A DNA stretch of 64,000 nucleotides from positions 8,471 through 72,470 of the forward strand of contig JANQTF010000300.1 of NCBI GenBank assembly GCA_030731845.1. The letters run 5' to 3'. The notes under the pieces are model-generated. The model was given only the letters and a program-made list of their open reading frames with translations. It was not told the DNA's origin and made no database searches. Positions 4,801-12,644 of this stretch are shown here, piece by piece. The translations under genes were made by a program, and so were the position numbers. How positions within the stretch are numbered: position 1 is the first letter of the stretch; every line of letters starts with the position of its first letter. This stretch comes from Bacteroidia bacterium (lineage in GTDB: Bacteria > Bacteroidota > Bacteroidia > J057).

Positions 4801-5202
4801 ATGCTGAAAGAATTTAAATCATTTGTCATGAAGGGAAACATCCTTGATCTGGCCGTAGCCGTGATCATTGGAGGTGCCTTTGGAAAAATCGTGTCATCGT
4901 TTGTGAATGACATTCTCATGCCGCCAATCGGAATGGCGCTCGGTGGAGTCAACTTTACCGACCTTGTCGTTACCCTCAAAGAAGCTGTTATGGACGCCGC
5001 TGGAGAAGTGACCGCCCCTGCTGTCACCATGAACGTTGGGATTTTTGTTCAGGCGATCATCGACTTCCTGATTGTGGCATTCGTCATCTTCATGGTTGTC
5101 AAAGCCTATAACAACACCCAGAAGAAAGAAGAGGAAGCTCCGGCTGCTCCTTCCAATGAGGAAGTACTTCTGGCCGAAATTCGCGACCTGCTCAAGAAGT
5201 AA
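4801..5202 (+). CDS. mscL: Large-conductance mechanosensitive channel
   Basis: [44 protein letters not shown] is the canonical MscL N-terminus and TM1. Length is 133 aa. Confidence 0.95.
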
Positions 5203-5243
5203 TCTCAACGGTGACGCACTCTGTGCGCAACAAACATCTAATT

Positions 5244-5286
5244 GCGGTTTTCACAAGAGATACCTCTCGTGAAAACCGCTTTTTTA
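5244..5286 (+). terminator. Rho-independent terminator of mscL
   Basis: GCGGTTTTCAC...GTGAAAACCGC 11-bp stem followed by a T-run. Confidence 0.8.
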
Positions 5287-5503
5287 TGCTTCCATCCTAC
5301 TTCCTTGGTACCATCAAGGCATCAATTGACTCTCTTTCTTCGTTATAGATTCGAAAAAATGATCTGGAGGAATAAACGATTGGTCCGTAACTTCGTCTAT
5401 TGAGTATCTTGAGAGCTGCGGTTCACTAAAATGTCCGTCGCAGGCAGTATCTGATGCCTCCTCAAAAAGCTTTTGTGCCCTCATCCCTAAGGTTGTACCA
5501 TTT

Positions 5504-6583
5504 ATGGAGTTGACCCTGATTCGCCGCTGTGCCCTTCTGGTTTTACCTATGCTGCTCGTAGCATGTCGCCCTGATCCTGTTACGCCGGATCTTTATGAGG
5601 TGCCCGCCATCATTCAGCCCTATGTGGATGCATTTGAGATGGAAGCTGCCAAGCGCGGCATTGAACTCGATATTTCCAACCTTCAGGTGGAGTTTACCAC
5701 CGACCTCGACGACGGCAAAGGCAATGAAGCCGCCGGACTCTGTCACTTCCAAAGTGCCAGCAATCCTACACCCCGCATCGAGCTCGACACCACGTCTTTC
5801 AACTGGCAAAACAACCTCTACCACCGCGAGATCCTCGTCTTCCACGAGTTGGGCCACTGCATCCTCAATCGCCTGCATCGCGACAATGAGCTTCCCAATG
5901 GCAACATAGCCTCCATCATGCGTAGCACCGGAGAGCAGGTCTATGGAGGCATTCTTAACGGCTTCAAGCGCGATTATTATATCGACGAATTATTCGACGA
6001 AAACACCCCTGCACCAGATTGGGCCACCAATCAGCCAGCCTATAATTCTGCGAGCTATGGCGCAAACATCTTTATCGATGAATTTGTGGATAACCGCAAT
6101 AGCTGGCCTTTGGGCAACAGCACCAACAGCCGTACGGCCATTCAAGGCGGCGATTTTATTTTTGAATCGAAGTCTGAGACAAGCGCATTTTTCCTCACCA
6201 AAAATGTGCTCATCGACACCGACAAAGATTTCGAAATCGAAGCACGCATTAAACTCGCGAGTGGGGAGCGTCCGGCCTTACTCCAATGGGGTGGCAACGA
6301 CGGCAGCGATTTGTACTTCTTCGGATTTTCTCGTGACAGCTCAATTCTAGCAGGCAATTGGCAGGAAGGTCTTGTGCTAGGCCAGCAAAGTCCACGCGTG
6401 AAAGCAGATGATTACAATGTACTCACCATCCGAAAAACCGGAACCTTCTACCACATCTATCTCAACGGTGAGTATCAGGAAATTTTTGAATTTGAGCCAT
6501 TCTTTGGCAACAAGATCGCTTTCTACATCGGGCAGCAATCTACCATGCAGGTAGATTATCTCCGAATCAGAGAGCTGTTGTAG
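5504..6583 (+). CDS. Putative zinc-metalloprotease lipoprotein with C-terminal jelly-roll/lectin-like domain
   Basis: Lipoprotein signal (LPMLLVAC). HExxH motif in ILVFHELGHCILNRLH. The C-terminal ~170 aa are beta-rich (FEIEARIKL...YNVLTIRKTGTFYHIYLNG). Family not identified. Confidence 0.55.
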   Translation: MELTLIRRCALLVLPMLLVACRPDPVTPDLYEVPAIIQPYVDAFEMEAAKRGIELDISNLQVEFTTDLDDGKGNEAAGLCHFQSASNPTPRIELDTTSFNWQNNLYHREILVFHELGHCILNRLHRDNELPNGNIASIMRSTGEQVYGGILNGFKRDYYIDELFDENTPAPDWATNQPAYNSASYGANIFIDEFVDNRNSWPLGNSTNSRTAIQGGDFIFESKSETSAFFLTKNVLIDTDKDFEIEARIKLASGERPALLQWGGNDGSDLYFFGFSRDSSILAGNWQEGLVLGQQSPRVKADDYNVLTIRKTGTFYHIYLNGEYQEIFEFEPFFGNKIAFYIGQQSTMQVDYLRIRELL

Positions 6584-6586
6584 GGC

Positions 6587-7051
6587 TCAATCCCAGACAC
6601 ATTCGCACAAGACACGCCGCTTTTCGATGGGGAGCGGTGGTGGTAAGGGAGCTTCGTAGCCACGCGAGATGTCTTTATATTCTTCGCGGATAAATCGCTT
6701 CCGCTTGATGCCAAACTCTTGCTCCATGTAGGCCACCATATATGACAAGCGCTCTTCCAAGAGAAGGCGAGACGCCACATCATCTGGACCGGGTGGCACA
6801 TCGGGCATGAGCTTCACCTCCATTCGCTTGTATTTTTTCATCAAATAAGCGAGGTAGCGCAGCTCCTGTTCATAGCCAGATTCGAGCTGCATCGTGCCCG
6901 ACACAAAGTAAATAATCGGCAATTCGCAGGACCGGCTATCCGGGGTACGCTTCACACCAAAAATTTCTGGAATTCCCTGACCATACGTATTGGTTGTGGG
7001 ACTCGCACAAAGGGGCAGTGCGATCAGGAGGATTTTGAGCAAGGGGATCAT
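6587..7051 (-). CDS. Hypothetical secreted protein
   Basis: 154-aa ORF with signal peptide MIPLLKILLIALPLCASP. No recognisable domain. Divergent from the Mks-like operon. Confidence 0.5.
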   Translation of the reverse strand: MIPLLKILLIALPLCASPTTNTYGQGIPEIFGVKRTPDSRSCELPIIYFVSGTMQLESGYEQELRYLAYLMKKYKRMEVKLMPDVPPGPDDVASRLLLEERLSYMVAYMEQEFGIKRKRFIREEYKDISRGYEAPLPPPLPIEKRRVLCECVWD

Positions 7052-7227
7052 GTTCCTGTAGGCGTTTGGGGGTAATCAAACGAGTGCCGGGGGTATCGGC
7101 ATCACGAGATAAACGAATATCGAAAACCTTTTGGTATGAAAACAGCCCCACAATCAATAGAAGTGCATGATGAAGAATAAATGTAGAAAAAAGTGATCAA
7201 AAATGCTATTTATATTAGCAAAACCAT

Positions 7228-7235
7228 TATTTTTG
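7228..7235 (+). promoter_or_regulatory. Candidate Bacteroidota -7 promoter box (TAnnTTTG) for the Mks-like operon
   Basis: TATTTTTG at 7228-7235, 16 nt upstream of ATG 7251. The match to the TAnnTTTG consensus was made by eye only. Confidence 0.3.
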
Positions 7236-7250
7236 GAGAAAGCGAGTCAC

Positions 7251-7808
7251 ATGCGTATTCCTCCCCAAACATCGGATATCTTCACTTTCCTCAGCAAGGG
7301 CCATTTCATTAGCCTCAATAGCAAAGACCCCATGCAGACGCACCTCTACGAGGTCATCAGCAGCCATGAGGGCTCCTTGAGAGATTACTTCGCCGTCATC
7401 GACCTTCATCTCCATCGCGGCAATGGCTACTATTATTTTTCTCGGCCAGAACGGGGCGAGAGCCTGGAAGAGCGCATGGAAAAAGTCATGCGTCAACTCG
7501 ACCTGCTCAGCTTTTTGCTTGCCTACAACCCTCGATTTGGTCCAGGCCTCGGTTTTAGCGCAAAAGAAGTATGGGAACAATGCCAACGAAAACCCGATCT
7601 CATGAAGCGCCTCGACAAGCTGAGCCTCCGCCCTGCAGGGGCATCCTCCGAAGAAAAACTTCGTCAGGTTCTTCGCCTCCTAGAAAAAGACACCTTCCTC
7701 GAAGCTGATACCGATGGCCACTACCGTGTCCTTTCGGCATTCGATTACCTTCTACAACTCATCGACCGAATTGAACTCAGATATGATCAGCAATACAGCC
7801 TATCCTGA
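7251..7808 (+). CDS. MukE/MksE/JetB-like (DUF4194-like) tandem winged-helix protein
   Basis: 185 aa from ATG 7251 (the track ORF begins at 7203; that alternative start is possible). The block FLSKGHFISL...LRDYFAVIDLHLHRGNGYYYFSRPE and a second wHTH-like half (LRQVLRLLEKDTFLEADTDGHYRVLSAF) resemble the MksE/JetB family as I recall it. The gene overlaps the downstream SMC-like gene by 26 nt. Confidence 0.5.
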   Translation: MRIPPQTSDIFTFLSKGHFISLNSKDPMQTHLYEVISSHEGSLRDYFAVIDLHLHRGNGYYYFSRPERGESLEERMEKVMRQLDLLSFLLAYNPRFGPGLGFSAKEVWEQCQRKPDLMKRLDKLSLRPAGASSEEKLRQVLRLLEKDTFLEADTDGHYRVLSAFDYLLQLIDRIELRYDQQYSLS

Positions 7809-10665
7809 ATCTGCCTCAATCCCCTTGAAACTACTTAGCGCCACGCTCTTAGGGTTTGGTGCTCCGGTTACCTACGACCTCGATGATTCCCTCTTTCTCT
7901 CTGGCCCGGCAGGACAGGGCAAGGAGAAGTTACTCGCCCTCCTCACTCATTGGTATCTTCCTCAATCAGAGCCCTTCCTCGACACAGAAGACCAGACTCC
8001 TTATCTCCTATATCAATGGAGCAAAGCAGGGAAGGCTCTCTGCTCTGTGCATAGCGTAGCCAAAGGAGAATGCGTGGCTTTCCTCATCGAAGGCAGCATC
8101 GAATCGAGCTGGGGGAAAGGGGAAATCCTTCCGCCTCTTGCCGAGTGGATAGAGGCTTTGCAGGCAGAGGGGCGGCGCACGAGTCCCATCATGTGGGGCG
8201 AGCAGGAGTGGCTGTCATGGCTCAATGGAAGCAGCGCCACAAAACCCAAACGCAATACGCCTGAGTTCCTTCTTTCTCCGCACATTCATCCCCACATCTT
8301 GCAGGCACTCAGATATCGGCCCGAACCTACTCCCTTTGCCTGGCAAGCCTATTTGTCTGCTACTGTCAGAAGGCAAATAGACCTGGGAGAAGATGTGCAT
8401 AAACGTTTGTTAGCCTATCGACAACACAGGGTCGAGCTCCTCCGTGACGAAGAAGCAGCCATCTCCTTGCCACAGCTCAGGCAGTGGCAGAGCACCGCCA
8501 AAAGCCTTCATCAAGAGAAGGCATTCTTAATGTCTCAGTGCCCAGCCATTTACCAACAACATCTCCAGGAAGGCGAAATAGCCCGGCAAAATCATCAGGC
8601 TCAGAAAGCTCTTCTCCCCCTTCACGAAAAACTCGACAGCCTCTCCCTCAGACTGGGTTGGCTGGAGTGGCAGATCCAGGAGTCACAAGCCGGGACCGAT
8701 CAGCCAACAGGAGCGGGATCAGAGCCAGCCCTGTGGTGGCAGGCCCGCAAGCTCATCGAAGCGGAGCTTCGCAGCGCCCAGGCAGCACAGCTCAAAACGC
8801 TTCATCTGCTATCTCAGCCCTTTGATGATGCGGCATCTGAAGAGGAATCGAGCATCATTTTCCGGGTGAGGCAATTGGAAAAAGAATTGCCGGGAAAATT
8901 CGCTGCCTTGGAAAAATCACGCCTCCAACTCGATTGGATCCGAAAGGAAAAAGAAGCGGAGGCAGCAAGAATAGAGGCAACTCAACAGAAAGAACACTCA
9001 AGCCTAAAAGAGCTAAAAGAAGAATTAGAGGCAAAATTAAAAGACTTGACCGCCGAGGCCCGCCGGCCTCAAAACACGCTGCGCCATTGGCTGGACAAGA
9101 ATTACCCAGACTGGAAGCAAGGACCGGGAAAAGTCCTCGCGCCTGAATTGCTAGCTAGCCGAGGCATGTTTCCCAGTATTGATCGAATCAACGACCTCTT
9201 CTTTGGTGTTCGGCTCAATCTTGATGACCTCCCTGAGCCCGAGGCCATGTCTGCGGATCTGTTACCAGACCTCGAGGAGCAAGTGGCAGAGACCCAGAAG
9301 CTATTGTCAGAGTTTCAGATCCGGTGTCAGCATGAAGAAAAATTGCTACAGGCACGGTATCGACAGCGCACCCGCCCTGTGCAGAAAGACATACAGCAAG
9401 CAGAATATGAGCTGCAACAACATGAGCGCGAGCTCGGCCAACTACGGCAGCGCCACAAAGACCTTCGCCACCATCGGCGACAAACATGGGAACAAACCCG
9501 ATTCCTCTTGCAATATGATCTTAACTCACAGGACAAAGAGCTTGCAGCACTTCAGGAGCAACTCCACGATCTCGATCTGCAATGGCAAGCCTGGCTCAAT
9601 CAGGAGAATCCTACCTTGCTTTCCAGCGCCAAGCTTAGTTCTCTTCTTAGTAGCTGGAAAAAAGAGAAAAAGCAGTTGTTGACCGCATTGGCCGAGGCTG
9701 AAAAAGCGCAAGAACTAGCGCGCGTGCATGCCAGCGAGGTACTTGACCGCTGGCAACACCATGATCAGCTCCTGGAGAGCTGGATCAAGGCCAAGGTAAT
9801 GCCCCGCCCAGCCCCGCAATCGACGGCTGTCTCAGCGCTTGATACTGCAACCTGGATCAAGCGGTTTCGTCTGTGGGAATTGGAATCTGCTGCATCTAGG
9901 CGGGAAGGAGAAGCCTGGCAGGGGCGATTTCCATGGCTCGCCATATTTGATTCGGAAGAGGAAGACCCCCTTGAATCCCTCGAATCAGCGGCCATCGCGG
10001 CCCGCAAAGCAACGCTAGCCCAGGCATGGTTTCCCCAGCTCAAGGTCATCGCAGCAGAATCCCATGCCATCCTGAGCTTGGCACAAGACATAGAGCGACA
10101 CTGGCAAGCCTGGGCAAAGTTGTGGGAGCAGATTGCCCAGAATAGTCCATGGAAGTCATTTGCTCCTTCATTTTCTGTAATGAACACATCGATGATTCGA
10201 GCACTCGAGGCCATTCGCGACCTTTGTCACAACCATCAGCATGCCGTGGCAGGTCCCAGCCTTTTCAACCATCAGGATCCACAACAAACTCTGGTTCAAA
10301 CCCTTCATTTGCTCGATAATCTCTGGGAAGCAAACCAACATTGGCAACACCAGGCCATGAGCCTCGATCTGCCTGGAGCCGGGGCACATGGACTTTCGAC
10401 CCCAAACACCGAAACTTCAGCCATCAATATTGCCTATCACACTAGCTACTTGATGACCATGGGCCACTCCCTGCCCGGGCCAGTGATGCTTGCAGCAGCA
10501 GATGAAATGCCCATCGATGTAGTTTCGGAAATCTCCTCCTTCGCTGCCTGCCTGCTTAGCTCACAGTGGCCCCTTCCTGTTTCGGGGCGGCACTTTTGGG
10601 TCACAAATACAGACAAAGAGAAGACATGGGAGGCATTGCCGTTCGCGATCGGCAATGAGGGATAA
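7783..10665 (+). CDS. SMC/JetC/MksB-like coiled-coil protein with degenerate ABC-ATPase head
   Basis: N-terminal head block IPLKLLSATLLGFGAPVTYDLDDSLFLSGPAGQGKEKLLALL (Walker A is GxxGxGK followed by E, not S/T). Two long Q/E/L/R-rich coiled-coil stretches flank a non-helical hinge-like segment (DWKQGPGKVLAPELLASRGMFPSIDRINDLFFGVRLNL, near 9.1-9.25 kb). The C-terminal head has LSTPNTETSAINIAY in the signature position and VMLAAADEMPIDV as Walker B. Start taken at ATG 7783 (M24 of the track ORF). Confidence 0.6.
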   Translation: MISNTAYPESASIPLKLLSATLLGFGAPVTYDLDDSLFLSGPAGQGKEKLLALLTHWYLPQSEPFLDTEDQTPYLLYQWSKAGKALCSVHSVAKGECVAFLIEGSIESSWGKGEILPPLAEWIEALQAEGRRTSPIMWGEQEWLSWLNGSSATKPKRNTPEFLLSPHIHPHILQALRYRPEPTPFAWQAYLSATVRRQIDLGEDVHKRLLAYRQHRVELLRDEEAAISLPQLRQWQSTAKSLHQEKAFLMSQCPAIYQQHLQEGEIARQNHQAQKALLPLHEKLDSLSLRLGWLEWQIQESQAGTDQPTGAGSEPALWWQARKLIEAELRSAQAAQLKTLHLLSQPFDDAASEEESSIIFRVRQLEKELPGKFAALEKSRLQLDWIRKEKEAEAARIEATQQKEHSSLKELKEELEAKLKDLTAEARRPQNTLRHWLDKNYPDWKQGPGKVLAPELLASRGMFPSIDRINDLFFGVRLNLDDLPEPEAMSADLLPDLEEQVAETQKLLSEFQIRCQHEEKLLQARYRQRTRPVQKDIQQAEYELQQHERELGQLRQRHKDLRHHRRQTWEQTRFLLQYDLNSQDKELAALQEQLHDLDLQWQAWLNQENPTLLSSAKLSSLLSSWKKEKKQLLTALAEAEKAQELARVHASEVLDRWQHHDQLLESWIKAKVMPRPAPQSTAVSALDTATWIKRFRLWELESAASRREGEAWQGRFPWLAIFDSEEEDPLESLESAAIAARKATLAQAWFPQLKVIAAESHAILSLAQDIERHWQAWAKLWEQIAQNSPWKSFAPSFSVMNTSMIRALEAIRDLCHNHQHAVAGPSLFNHQDPQQTLVQTLHLLDNLWEANQHWQHQAMSLDLPGAGAHGLSTPNTETSAINIAYHTSYLMTMGHSLPGPVMLAAADEMPIDVVSEISSFAACLLSSQWPLPVSGRHFWVTNTDKEKTWEALPFAIGNEG

Positions 10666-10721
10666 ATCAGAGGCGTCAAATTTTGTATCTTTGACACCTA
10701 CTCTATCAACAATACCAGCTC

Positions 10722-11948
10722 ATGGCATCCGGTATCCGCATTTGGTGGCGAAAACAACAGTTGTCAAGAACCCTTGGCAGCTGCGACGAAGCTGGCTTGA
10801 TCAGGGCAGTAGAAATAGGGAATGCCGCGGCGATTTCCTCCCTGTTGGAGTTGGGAGTTTCGGCAGATGCGAGGGATGAAAAAGGTCGTCCGGCTCTGTG
10901 TGTAGCCGTGCGTCAGGGCGACACTGTAACCACTGCTCATTTGCTGAAACTTGGAGCTAATCTGGCCCTCACTGATCAGGAAGGCAGGACGGCCATCATG
11001 GAAGCGGTCATTCACGGCGATAAATATCTCCTTCAGCATTTGCTGGAGTACCATCCTGATATTAACAAGCGCAATGCACTTGGGGAAACAGCCCTGCTGA
11101 TCGCAGTGAAAGAGGGAAATACAACGCTGGGACGGATGCTTCTATCCGCTGGGGCAGAGGCAGATCTGGCCGACCGCAACGGAATCACGCCCCTGATGGC
11201 GGCGGTAGAAGACGCAAAAGTGGCCCTCGTGAAAAGCTTGCTCGAAGCAGGCGCCAATCCCGAGCAGCGAGATCTGGCCGGGCGAAATACCCTCGACAGA
11301 CCGAGTCTGTCTCCCCGCATTCAGAAAATGCTGCAAGAAGCAAGCAGCCCCTCGCCAGGTAAGTCGGCTGGCACGGAGCCCATGCTGCCAGACCTCTTAC
11401 ATCGATGGCTTGGCTCGGCTACCCAATTACTGGGAACCGAACATGCTGCCCTCGATGTCACAAACAAAGGGCAAGAACTCATCCAATTATTAGGAAGCAC
11501 ATTTAGGCTAACAGACCTGGAGCGCTCCGAGGAATGGCTCCAAGGCGGAGCCGGGATGCTCGTGCTGCTTATGCAGGAGGTGCAGCGAGGACTCAGCCAA
11601 CTTTCGCTTTCGACAAAAGAAGAAGAAGCCGCCGAAAGCTGGAAAAAGCTCGAACAATTGGTGCGGGGCATGGCCTCAGGGCTCACAGCACCTCAGGCAA
11701 ATATTTCATCGGGGCCTGAGCAGCACATTCACTTTCACCTTCCACCGATCAATCCGGAGGGCGCCCTGCCACCCGACAAAGCCCTGAATGAAGCAATCAC
11801 TTCAGGTGCAGCGCGTGCCGCCAGGATCCTTTCCGAGATGCGTACGGGAGAATCCACCGGAGAGCTCAGCATTCACCTCAATGAAGAAGAATCGCCCGTG
11901 ATCCTGAAGCCCTCAGCCGAAGATCCGCATTCCCCCTCTCAGGCATAA
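10722..11948 (+). CDS. Cytoplasmic ankyrin-repeat protein with uncharacterised C-terminal half
   Basis: About five consecutive ANK repeats (GRPALCVAVRQGDTVTTAHLLKLGANLALTDQEGRTAIMEAVIHGD...GETALLIAVKEGN...GITPLMAAVED...LLEAGANPEQRD). No signal peptide. I cannot assign residues ~200-408 to a family. Confidence 0.85.
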   Translation: MASGIRIWWRKQQLSRTLGSCDEAGLIRAVEIGNAAAISSLLELGVSADARDEKGRPALCVAVRQGDTVTTAHLLKLGANLALTDQEGRTAIMEAVIHGDKYLLQHLLEYHPDINKRNALGETALLIAVKEGNTTLGRMLLSAGAEADLADRNGITPLMAAVEDAKVALVKSLLEAGANPEQRDLAGRNTLDRPSLSPRIQKMLQEASSPSPGKSAGTEPMLPDLLHRWLGSATQLLGTEHAALDVTNKGQELIQLLGSTFRLTDLERSEEWLQGGAGMLVLLMQEVQRGLSQLSLSTKEEEAAESWKKLEQLVRGMASGLTAPQANISSGPEQHIHFHLPPINPEGALPPDKALNEAITSGAARAARILSEMRTGESTGELSIHLNEEESPVILKPSAEDPHSPSQA

Positions 11949-11960
11949 AAAGCCGCTTGA

Positions 11961-12644
11961 TCAAGCCTCCCGAACCAGGTATTTATCAAAAATTTCACCC
12001 AATTCGCTCTTTTTGTCCTCTTTATAAATCTCAGCATGAAAGCCATGGAGGTGCGTGAGCAAGGGAAGCAACTGCGCCAATTCGGCAGGTCCAAGGTTAC
12101 CCGCTACGATCTTAGAGACCTTCTCCATGTTCACCATCGCATGATCCACCACTTCGAGACCTTGCTCGGTGATGGCCACCTGTTTGGACCGGCCATCATT
12201 AGGGTCCGAAAAAGTAGCGATGAAGCCCTGCTTGCTCAGTCTTTTGAGGATCTCGATCCCAGAAGTGATCTCCAACATGTGCTGATTGGTGAGCTCTGAT
12301 TTGGTCATGCTTCCCTGATATTTGAGGGTAAGCAAAAAGGTGAAGTCATCCAGCGTAGAAAGCGGACTCCCTTCAAGCGCCTTTTTGGTGTAGTGCTTGG
12401 CATACCGAAACAAGAAAGTAAGCAATATCGTGAGGATATTGTCGGGCGTCATGCCGCTTTTTTCTTCCTTCGAACTAATAATTTCTGCCGAAGGCTCTGA
12501 AAATAACAGGTCCTGTTCCAGTTTATTTCGCTCAAGAAGCCAGTGAATAAAGCCGGGAAGGTGAACCTCATTGGCCGCTGCCTTTCCATCAAACTCAGCT
12601 ACTAACTCCATTAACTGCTTCAACAAGGGCAATGCTCGCTGCAT
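11961..12644 (-). CDS. MarR-family winged-helix regulator with extended N-terminus
   Basis: GSMTKSELTNQHMLEITSGIEILKRLSKQGFIATFSDPNDGRSKQVAITEQG is a typical MarR wHTH and wing. Divergent from a TonB-dependent receptor gene. Confidence 0.75.
   Translation of the reverse strand: MQRALPLLKQLMELVAEFDGKAAANEVHLPGFIHWLLERNKLEQDLLFSEPSAEIISSKEEKSGMTPDNILTILLTFLFRYAKHYTKKALEGSPLSTLDDFTFLLTLKYQGSMTKSELTNQHMLEITSGIEILKRLSKQGFIATFSDPNDGRSKQVAITEQGLEVVDHAMVNMEKVSKIVAGNLGPAELAQLLPLLTHLHGFHAEIYKEDKKSELGEIFDKYLVREA

Follow-up and report, generated by a model that had tools for sequence, protein, structure and literature searches.

What function is left to an SMC-KITE core that has neither ATP turnover nor a kleisin? 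The question is raised by three co-directional genes (7251-11948 in an open reading frame check) found in a 64,000-nt stretch of contig JANQTF010000300.1, from the Bacteroidia bacterium assembly GCA_030731845.1; this whole stretch is called the window here. The genes, together termed the trio, encode an MksE-like KITE protein (gene 1), a shortened SMC-like protein (gene 2) and an ankyrin-repeat protein (gene 3). To our knowledge, all characterised SMC complexes are ATP-driven, kleisin-closed rings, and KITE subunits are defined by kleisin binding. We consider it very likely that the trio is a reduced, degenerate derivative of the Bacteroidota DUF3584/PF21980 branch of the MukBEF-MksBEF-Wadjet family. 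The best explanation overall, to which we give a probability of about 0.55, is that it encodes a reduced, repurposed and probably non-motor SMC-KITE scaffold with an ankyrin adaptor.

Gene 2 is an MksB/JetC homolog of the DUF3584 lineage with SMC architecture. When its family is compared with 20 canonical DUF3584 proteins by profile-profile alignment (hhalign), the probability is 100% and E=2.4e-40 over 906 columns (query 14-930, template 6-1183). The alignment runs end to end, and thus the homology to DUF3584 proteins takes in the two head halves, the two arms and the hinge. Profile-profile comparison was needed to see this full-length homology, because gene 2 by itself matches Pfam DUF3584 (PF12128; 37.2 bits, cut-off 31) only at central positions 488-759 of 1191. 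Single-sequence searches against Pfam, NCBIfam, PADLOC and the PDB gave no head-domain match, the last three giving none at all, and the family profile found only a marginal ABC P-loop match in the PDB (E=0.07). The AlphaFold2 (AF2) model, with a confidence score (pLDDT) of 70.6, displays in order beta-strands with a helix, a long helix, a non-helical centre, a second long helix and a mixed alpha/beta C-terminus. Foldseek places this model closest to MukB (9gm6_B, 1.5e-10) and Wadjet-II JetC (9qe0_B, 1e-9), followed by Rad50 and Smc5/6. Confidence is below 50 around the P-loop and low in the C-terminal tail.

Prominent in the gene 2 family is the hinge-equivalent core, the best-conserved segment of the protein, which has invariant columns in the family alignment and aligns with WLEKNYPDW..IGKV..LFYGI of DUF3584. 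Many Trp, Pro and Gly positions are likewise invariant across the family. Compared with a canonical member, the ascending arm is shorter by about 96 aa and the descending arm by about 90 aa; matched deletions of this kind are expected if an antiparallel coiled coil is shortened in register. The C-terminus has in turn acquired a tail, with the motif P.x[VI]xGxH.W...[ED]ALPF, that all 10 tier-1 proteins share and that none of 17 tier-2 and tier-3 relatives has.

Is the ATPase preserved as well? An earlier note on this DNA had ascribed the full SMC/JetC layout to gene 2. As regards architecture this holds, by the hhalign and Foldseek results; the ATPase motifs do not follow. The P-loop form G..G.GKE (GPAGxGKE) occurs in all eight family members that have an N-terminus, where the aligned canonical DUF3584 proteins have G.nG.GK[ST]. 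At the signature motif the canonical GS.GTD (GSGGT) contrasts with STPNTE in the window (a column match to STPNT), and at Walker B the canonical hhhhDE contrasts with AA; the columns of both motifs are variable among orthologs. A 'DE' lying near Walker B in the window is shifted by three residues against the aligned columns and lacks conservation. All motifs are intact in 12 of the 20 DUF3584 proteins. In the seven DUF3584 proteins that score closest to the trio family, GK[ST] is kept, and the signature and the catalytic Glu are gone (LDN, IDQ, LDD, LDQ); in a further tier of 980-1050-aa proteins the P-loop is absent altogether. The motif set of gene 2 predicts a loss of ATP binding and hydrolysis, and of head engagement with them. 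Because the P-loop reads GKE and both the signature and the conserved Walker B are gone, a motor of the Mks/Wadjet kind is not to be assumed, and the pipeline label 'ATP-binding protein' for gene 2 is probably misleading.

The partner of this protein can be named from its profile match: gene 1 is a full-length member of the MksE/KITE family as judged by PF21980 (MksE; E=1.4e-32, profile positions 1-161 of 163), and its previously remarked likeness to MukE/MksE/JetB is borne out. Matches to DUF4194 (E=0.005) and to the PADLOC JetB1 model (E=0.011) are both below threshold and represent a weak JetB echo, and a PDB search with gene 1 alone gave no match. Identity is 41% to the MksE of a DUF3584 locus of the F-E-B type (kleisin-position protein, KITE, SMC ATPase). 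Among orthologs of the trio, identity is 60-72%, which makes gene 1 the best conserved of the three.

Gene 3 contains ankyrin repeats (Ank_2, E=9e-25) followed by a C-terminal half that fits no family, and the earlier description of an ankyrin-repeat protein with an unassignable half of about 200 aa was correct. AF2 models the ankyrin part as five helix pairs at a pLDDT of about 90, and the C-half, with five predicted helices that lack confident packing, at less than 50. Foldseek returns DARPins and ankyrins (E~1e-9), generic ankyrin proteins only. A large homolog search with the C-half gave no match and missed even the source protein, which is in the collection, perhaps owing to a limitation of the word index. 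Two apparent leads were set aside. Matches of the C-half profile to Protein A in the PDB (E=2e-8) come from a 34-residue similarity summed over five tandem Z-domains, each with an independent E-value of 4-8, and are ascribed to chance. A match to PADLOC PDC-M72A (E=6e-30) covers the ankyrin repeats only and is no evidence of membership in that candidate system.

Are the three genes a unit that evolution has kept together? The trio recurs in all loci found, about nine in number (L001, L002/L003/L004, L005, L007+L008, L009, L010, L011 and L015/L016). In each, the MksE gene lies directly upstream of the gene 2 homolog, at distances from a 26-nt overlap to a 1-nt gap, and the ankyrin gene lies 42-102 nt downstream of gene 2 in every locus that reaches that far. 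Two sets of flanks are seen. In the first (context a), a 355-aa lipoprotein gene and a divergent 154-aa gene are on one side and MarR, TonB-dependent receptor and NuoF-like genes on the other; in the second (context b), aminotransferase and DUF1905 genes are followed, on the far side of the trio, by genes for a GNAT protein, an acyltransferase and a flavin reductase. The co-conservation in related genomes that had been proposed as a check is thus observed, in about nine loci with two flank sets. The family is a rare one: gene 2 has only seven homologs among 5.8e9 clustered proteins, and an exhaustive profile search gave about seven representatives of the family when clustered at 50%, together with two more distant tiers. 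All taxonomically labelled records are metagenome-assembled genomes (MAGs) of Bacteroidia/Bacteroidota. The chromosomal position is stable across orthologs only 36-40% identical, and a plasmid and phage search found no close relative. Elsewhere in the window the genes are those of an ordinary Bacteroidota chromosome (SprB/type IX secretion tail, AcrB, S46 peptidase, phosphoenolpyruvate carboxykinase, TonB receptors) with no defence island. The trio is vertically inherited in ordinary chromosomal contexts.

Could gene 3 be simply a conserved neighbour of unrelated function, the unit proper being MksE and a degenerate MksB? Such E-B doublets without a third gene do exist in related lineages (L013), there is a conserved promoter-like box in the spacer between genes 2 and 3, and gene 3 has no detectable domain link to SMC systems. 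We regard this reading as most unlikely all the same, as gene 3 comes after gene 2 in each locus, also in those of the second context where all other neighbours differ. In addition, the family-specific tail of gene 2 is found only where gene 3 is present, and gene 3 orthologs are as rare as those of gene 2 (clusters of 1-2 members).

A further possibility is that the trio is what a lost Mks/Wadjet system has left behind, in decay and without function. The loss of two genes and of the catalytic motifs fits this, and more eroded standalone relatives exist (L012, L018). In one locus (L005), gene 2 is split into overlapping open reading frames (5125-5619 and 5502-7979) by a frameshift or an assembly error, with genes 1 and 3 intact, and a frameshift there would fit decay. 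Against this, the reading frames are intact in at least eight loci, the arm deletions are matched, Trp, Pro or Gly is invariant at many sites, and conservation extends to the promoter-like blocks. The substitution pattern is a strong objection. An exact dN/dS is not computable, since synonymous sites are saturated, and the proportions of nonsynonymous (pN) and synonymous (pS) differences were compared instead: across all three genes pS is 0.76-0.85 (saturated) and pN is 0.06-0.46. For the closest pair, pN is 0.06 in MksE, 0.25 in the N-head of gene 2, 0.14 in its hinge (the lowest of the gene 2 regions) and 0.18 in its C-head; in gene 3 it is 0.14 in the ankyrin part and 0.18 in the C-half. 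As pN is far below saturated pS everywhere, the heads included, purifying selection acts on every part, and a functionless relic is hardly credible. With orthologs in every related locus and this substitution pattern, the three open reading frames go well beyond a chance finding.

The canonical Bacteroidota members of this branch are encoded either as F-E-B or as F-E-B-G, the latter with an added Toprim nuclease. What has become of the two outer genes? The first-position (F) proteins of the relatives form one family (pairwise E=4e-6). A profile built from three members, with the F protein of L014 left out, recovered that protein at 2.3e-11, though it is only 22% identical to the reference member L017. 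Against the 64-kb window and the trio flanks, the best open reading frame scored only E=0.36. By this profile the kleisin-position gene is absent locally, that is, from the window and the flanks, as had been noticed for MksF/JetA when the locus was first described. The 359-aa open reading frame to the left of the trio was considered as a displaced kleisin and rejected, as it has a lipoprotein-type signal and a HELGH motif, is absent in the second synteny context and gives no F-profile match. The statement that no Toprim nuclease gene (jetD) follows the SMC gene also holds: the slot after gene 2 is occupied by gene 3, and a Toprim/JetD search of the three trio proteins gave no match. As with the kleisin-position gene, a Toprim gene is absent from the 64-kb window and the trio flanks.

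Might the missing subunits be encoded elsewhere, with the trio an active Wadjet/MksBEFG anti-plasmid system and the ankyrin protein an accessory sensor or effector? Four-gene systems of the Wadjet type are ancestral to the lineage, and the ankyrin part resembles modules of candidate defence proteins, as in the PADLOC PDC-M72A match; that match, however, extends over generic repeats only. The catalytic motifs of the SMC-like protein are eroded, and in PADLOC gene 2 matches none of the Jet models, with gene 1 reaching only E~0.01. The stable position among housekeeping neighbours and the lack of close plasmid or phage relatives also argue against it. A split defence system of this kind appears distinctly unlikely.

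Another reading keeps the ring. The ankyrin protein would be a kleisin surrogate whose N-helix and C-half attach to the SMC-like heads at neck and cap and keep the MksE dimer in place, closing a ring with an alpha-solenoid middle. A KITE subunit normally needs a kleisin, and with MksE the best-conserved subunit, a kleisin-like partner is to be expected; gene 3 always adjoins gene 2, the new tail of gene 2 co-occurs with it, and a C-half that is helical, conserved and poorly modelled alone fits a protein that folds on a partner. However, gene 3 sits in the nuclease slot rather than the kleisin slot, no winged-helix domain is predicted in it, and a gated ring may be purposeless if ATP-dependent head engagement is lost. 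Descent of gene 3 from an F- or G-position protein was examined with hhalign and rejected, at a probability of about 0.1% (0.06-0.1% against the F family, 0.06% against the DUF7281/JetD-like protein of L017). The surrogate role, floated in the earlier note, thus finds no sequence support, and we hold it to be doubtful.

Transcription has a bearing on how tightly gene 3 is tied to the other two. The Bacteroidota -7 promoter consensus is TAnnTTTG, and two boxes in the locus were compared with it. The box upstream of gene 1, TATTTTTG, lies at equal distance in five of seven orthologous loci; across the window TAnnTTTG has a density of 0.23 per kb per strand. The box in the spacer has the form TAyCTTnn, and the spacer core AAA..T.GTAyCTT is invariant in six of six loci (window, L001, L002, L009, L010, L011), in spacers that otherwise vary and are 42-102 nt long. 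By their fit to the consensus both blocks are putative promoters, and the spacer box suggests that gene 3 can also be transcribed alone. A scan for sigma-70 promoters and terminators was uninformative, the counts being equal to shuffled expectation. Of the earlier term 'operon', the co-directional unit stands; a single operon may be too strong a term, as gene 3 probably has its own promoter-like box.

The coordinates of these features are listed in Table 1.

Table 1. Features of the trio and its immediate neighbours, in window coordinates
Feature	Position	Strand	Description
Gene 1	7251-7808	+	MksE-like KITE subunit, 185 aa; alternative ATG at 7203
Gene 2	7783-10665	+	960 aa, shortened MksB/JetC homolog (DUF3584 lineage) with eroded ATPase motifs; further ATG upstream at 7714
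Gene 3	10722-11948	+	408 aa, ankyrin-repeat protein
Conserved upstream block GCTATTTATATTAGCAAAACCATTATTTTTGG	7205-7236	+	Contains Bacteroidota-type -7 box TATTTTTG; putative promoter
-7 box TATTTTTG	7228-7235	+	15 nt upstream of gene 1 ATG
Deviant P-loop GPAGQGKE	7903-7926	+	Gene 2 aa 41-48; Walker A Ser/Thr replaced by Glu
Hinge-equivalent core	9061-9234	+	Gene 2 aa 427-484; RRPxNTLRxWLxKNYPDW..GPGK...RINDLFFG
C-head landmark GPSLFNHQDPQQT	10252-10290	+	G.SLF..Q, present in DUF3584 tiers 1-3; the degenerate signature and Walker B sites lie downstream
C-terminal tail WPLPVSGRHFWV...WEALPFA	10567-10647	+	Gene 2 aa 929-955; family-specific
Spacer block CAAATTTTGTATCTTTGA	10677-10694	+	18 nt, between gene 2 and gene 3; putative promoter
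-7-like box TATCTTTG	10686-10693	+	Inside spacer block CAAATTTTGTATCTTTGA
Gene 3 ankyrin part	10788-11291	+	aa ~23-190, five repeats, preceded by N-terminal helix
Gene 3 C-half	11307-11945	+	aa 196-408, conserved, predicted helical, matches no family
Motif QEVQRG (QE.QRG)	11574-11591	+	Invariant, gene 3 C-half
Motif QHIHFHLP (QH.H.H.P)	11721-11744	+	Invariant, gene 3 C-half
Right neighbour	11961-12644	-	Convergent MarR-family gene (PF01047/HTH_27), 12-nt gap from gene 3
Left neighbour	6587-7051	divergent	154-aa protein, signal-peptide-like N-terminus, no Pfam match
Open reading frame further left	5504-6583		359-aa predicted lipoprotein, HELGH metalloprotease-like motif, no Pfam match

The open reading frame coordinates agree with the geometry first described, namely co-directional genes with a 26-nt overlap between genes 1 and 2 (7783-7808) and a 56-nt spacer before gene 3, flanked by a divergent gene on the left and a convergent MarR gene 12 nt away on the right. 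The length of gene 1, earlier given as 185-201 aa, can be narrowed to 185 aa: in the ortholog alignment its N-terminus is MRIPPQTSDIF, which is kept in six orthologs and fixes the start at 7251. The 201-aa reading is unlikely because the conserved non-coding block upstream overlaps the ATG at 7203.

As to the neighbours, the winged-helix domain of the MarR-family protein is confined to residues ~98-165 of 227, and its N-terminal extension of about 95 aa matches no family. Among the other context-a loci scanned at that position, a MarR-family gene is convergent after gene 3 in L001, L009 and L010; in context b it is not. On the left, genes of like position and orientation, matched by size alone (355 aa and 154-161 aa), are present in L001, L010 and L015, and in L009 the divergent gene encodes 225 aa. 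The lipoprotein and the divergent signal-peptide genes are absent in context b (L002, L011).

How might such a complex work? The lineage has kept a KITE gene translationally coupled to the SMC-like gene, and in the SMC-like protein the hinge, the head secondary-structure elements and a pair of arms shortened in a coordinated way. New are the ankyrin protein, encoded next door in every case, and the conserved tail at the C-terminus of the SMC-like protein. The lack of a Walker B acid, a signature motif and an Mg-coordinating hydroxyl makes it unlikely that ATP drives head engagement or loop extrusion, and plasmid cleavage is unlikely because there is no nuclease; the ATP-driven, loop-extruding nuclease action would then no longer be performed by the complex. 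The most economical reading is that a hinge-dimerised coiled-coil scaffold would still have MksE dimers attached. As a dedicated adaptor, the ankyrin protein would dock on the SMC-like subunit, possibly through the ...WEALPF tail or through its own C-terminal helices, and would link the scaffold to other protein or DNA-associated targets. Ankyrin grooves commonly bind extended peptides, and the tail is conserved and poorly ordered; this makes the tail a candidate ankyrin docking site. For the C-half of gene 3, which carries the QE.QRG and QH.H.H.P motifs, two roles are conceivable: kleisin-like binding to MksE or the heads, or that of a small metal-binding effector. This specific scaffold and adaptor mechanism is put forward tentatively. 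A housekeeping or regulatory chromosomal role is more likely than plasmid restriction.

Several points weigh against a non-motor scaffold with an ankyrin adaptor. The ATPase loss is read from motifs alone, and a GKE P-loop might still bind nucleotide. Contacts among the three proteins are inferred only. The C-half of gene 3 is poorly modelled and showed no link to a known fold by AF2, by profile search of the PDB or by Foldseek, and gene 3 may have its own promoter. The F-position family is called kleisin from gene position and size only, with no PDB or Pfam match. Searches for the kleisin and nuclease genes covered the window and the trio flanks, and either gene may lie elsewhere in the genome. 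Finally, the family is known from just about nine MAG or metagenome loci.

The trio sits within a broader, undescribed reductive series of the Bacteroidota DUF3584 lineage. At the intact end, locus L017 encodes a 398-aa helical protein, MksE, a 1231-aa DUF3584 protein with GKST, GSDGTD and MMDEIG, and a 296-aa DUF7281 protein that has Toprim-like motifs and a weak JetD match. A four-gene F-E-B-G set is also present in the P0042 locus and on plasmid pPP6 of Persicobacter psychrovividus (L021, 54026-60310), there beside relaxase and toxin-antitoxin genes, and a metagenome scan with the MksE alignment returned one locus, the canonical four-gene relative. Parabacteroides distasonis has a three-gene F-E-B locus in a housekeeping context (L020, NZ_OY725754.1, 46326-51756). 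Both of the last two species are in culture, and their genes are annotated merely as 'hypothetical protein' or 'ATP-binding protein', and PADLOC matches them weakly (JetC1 N-terminus ~1e-4, JetD tail ~1e-4). In L014 the SMC protein is partly eroded and the F gene is kept (F-E-B). L013 has an MksE-MksB (E-B) doublet between secreted-protein genes (5462-9549), and L012 (5728-8667) and L018 (747-3731) have solo DUF3584 genes without a P-loop; the last three suggest repeated reductive evolution in the DUF3584 lineage.

Two side observations concern this series. Asp-Gln at Walker B is the change carried by laboratory 'EQ' hydrolysis-deficient SMC mutants, and the full-length DUF3584 proteins P0022 and P0029 have Asp-Gln at that site (IDQ and LDQ), with the signature motif also gone. 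In L019 (5430-11839), an MksE gene and a gene for a P-loop-less DUF3584 protein of 984 aa are followed, 278 nt on, by a gene for an 868-aa protein with a transmembrane segment and C-terminal tetratricopeptide (TPR) repeats. This was considered as a parallel case of a degenerate SMC with a repeat protein and is not used as evidence, given the transmembrane segment, the 278-nt gap and the fact that it is a single case and perhaps a coincidence.

Two graded series can thus be drawn up as natural intermediates for comparison. Among DUF3584 proteins, the canonical form is followed by loss of the catalytic Glu and signature, then by the GKE form and then by loss of the P-loop; the gene sets run in parallel from F-E-B-G to F-E-B, E-B and a solo gene. 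The lineage bears on how defence and condensin machines are repurposed in evolution. Its rarity (about nine loci, all uncultured) limits immediate tractability. The trio might even be the first non-motor, kleisin-less SMC-KITE-derived complex, in which an ankyrin subunit would take the bridging and adaptor role of the kleisin as an independently evolved, prokaryotic HAWK analogue, with arm and hinge serving as a passive scaffold that organises DNA or protein; in this full form the proposal is unlikely.

Does the trio resemble any described system? That it could not be placed in a known condensin-like or anti-plasmid system was the view first taken of it, and no paper in the literature searched names it. 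The same literature holds no paper that connects ankyrin proteins to Mks, Wadjet or MukBEF, or that describes kleisin-less or ATPase-eroded derivatives, and DUF3584 figures only in one fitness study, considered below.

A resemblance in kind only is offered by HAWK subunits, the HEAT-repeat proteins of eukaryotic cohesin and condensin: in both cases a repeat protein of the alpha-solenoid type accompanies an SMC-family core. The repeats of the trio are ankyrin and not HEAT, there is no kleisin with which to associate and no homology, and the association within the trio is itself inferred. Archaea provide a precedent for an SMC complex that survives the loss of a canonical subunit, as binary Smc-ScpA complexes persist there without a KITE subunit (PMC7055376). 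The losses are reversed: in the archaeal complex the KITE is lost and kleisin and ATPase are kept, whereas the trio has lost the kleisin and kept the KITE.

Outside the family, the nearest relatives of gene 2 (E=1e-25 to 1e-16) are the partially eroded DUF3584 proteins P0021-P0033 from metagenome loci of Bacteroidota type, which include those of L013 and L014. They too have lost the signature and the catalytic Glu, and in L013 the F gene is also lacking. Unlike gene 2, they keep GK[ST] and full-length arms (1149-1189 aa), and have neither the ...ALPF tail nor an ankyrin gene.

MukBEF and MksBEF, including Shewanella Sama_0592-0594 and the F-E-B locus of P. distasonis, share with the trio a homologous SMC-KITE core and a housekeeping-like context. 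The kleisin-position gene is retained there, and the canonical members also have intact ATPase motifs; both are lacking in the trio, which has an ankyrin protein in addition. Shewanella mutants of the DUF3584 gene, there called SMC-like, are sensitive to cisplatin, and the gene is cofit with the two genes upstream (Price et al., bioRxiv 10.1101/072470).

From Wadjet (MksBEFG, EptABCD or JetABCD) the trio differs in that no JetA/MksF gene adjoins the KITE gene and no JetD/MksG gene occupies the fourth slot, which is taken by the ankyrin protein. It has also lost the Walker A Ser/Thr, the signature and Walker B, its arms are about 90 aa shorter per strand, and its chromosomal context is stable, with no defence island. 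The likeness is nonetheless extensive. The trio pairs an MksE/JetB-type KITE with an SMC-like protein of MukB/JetC fold, and the PADLOC wording for JetC1 is 'DUF3584 domain; MukB-like'. The canonical Bacteroidota relatives of the trio carry a fourth gene with a JetD-like Toprim tail, and the order of E followed by B, in genes that overlap or abut, is the same in the trio as in Wadjet.

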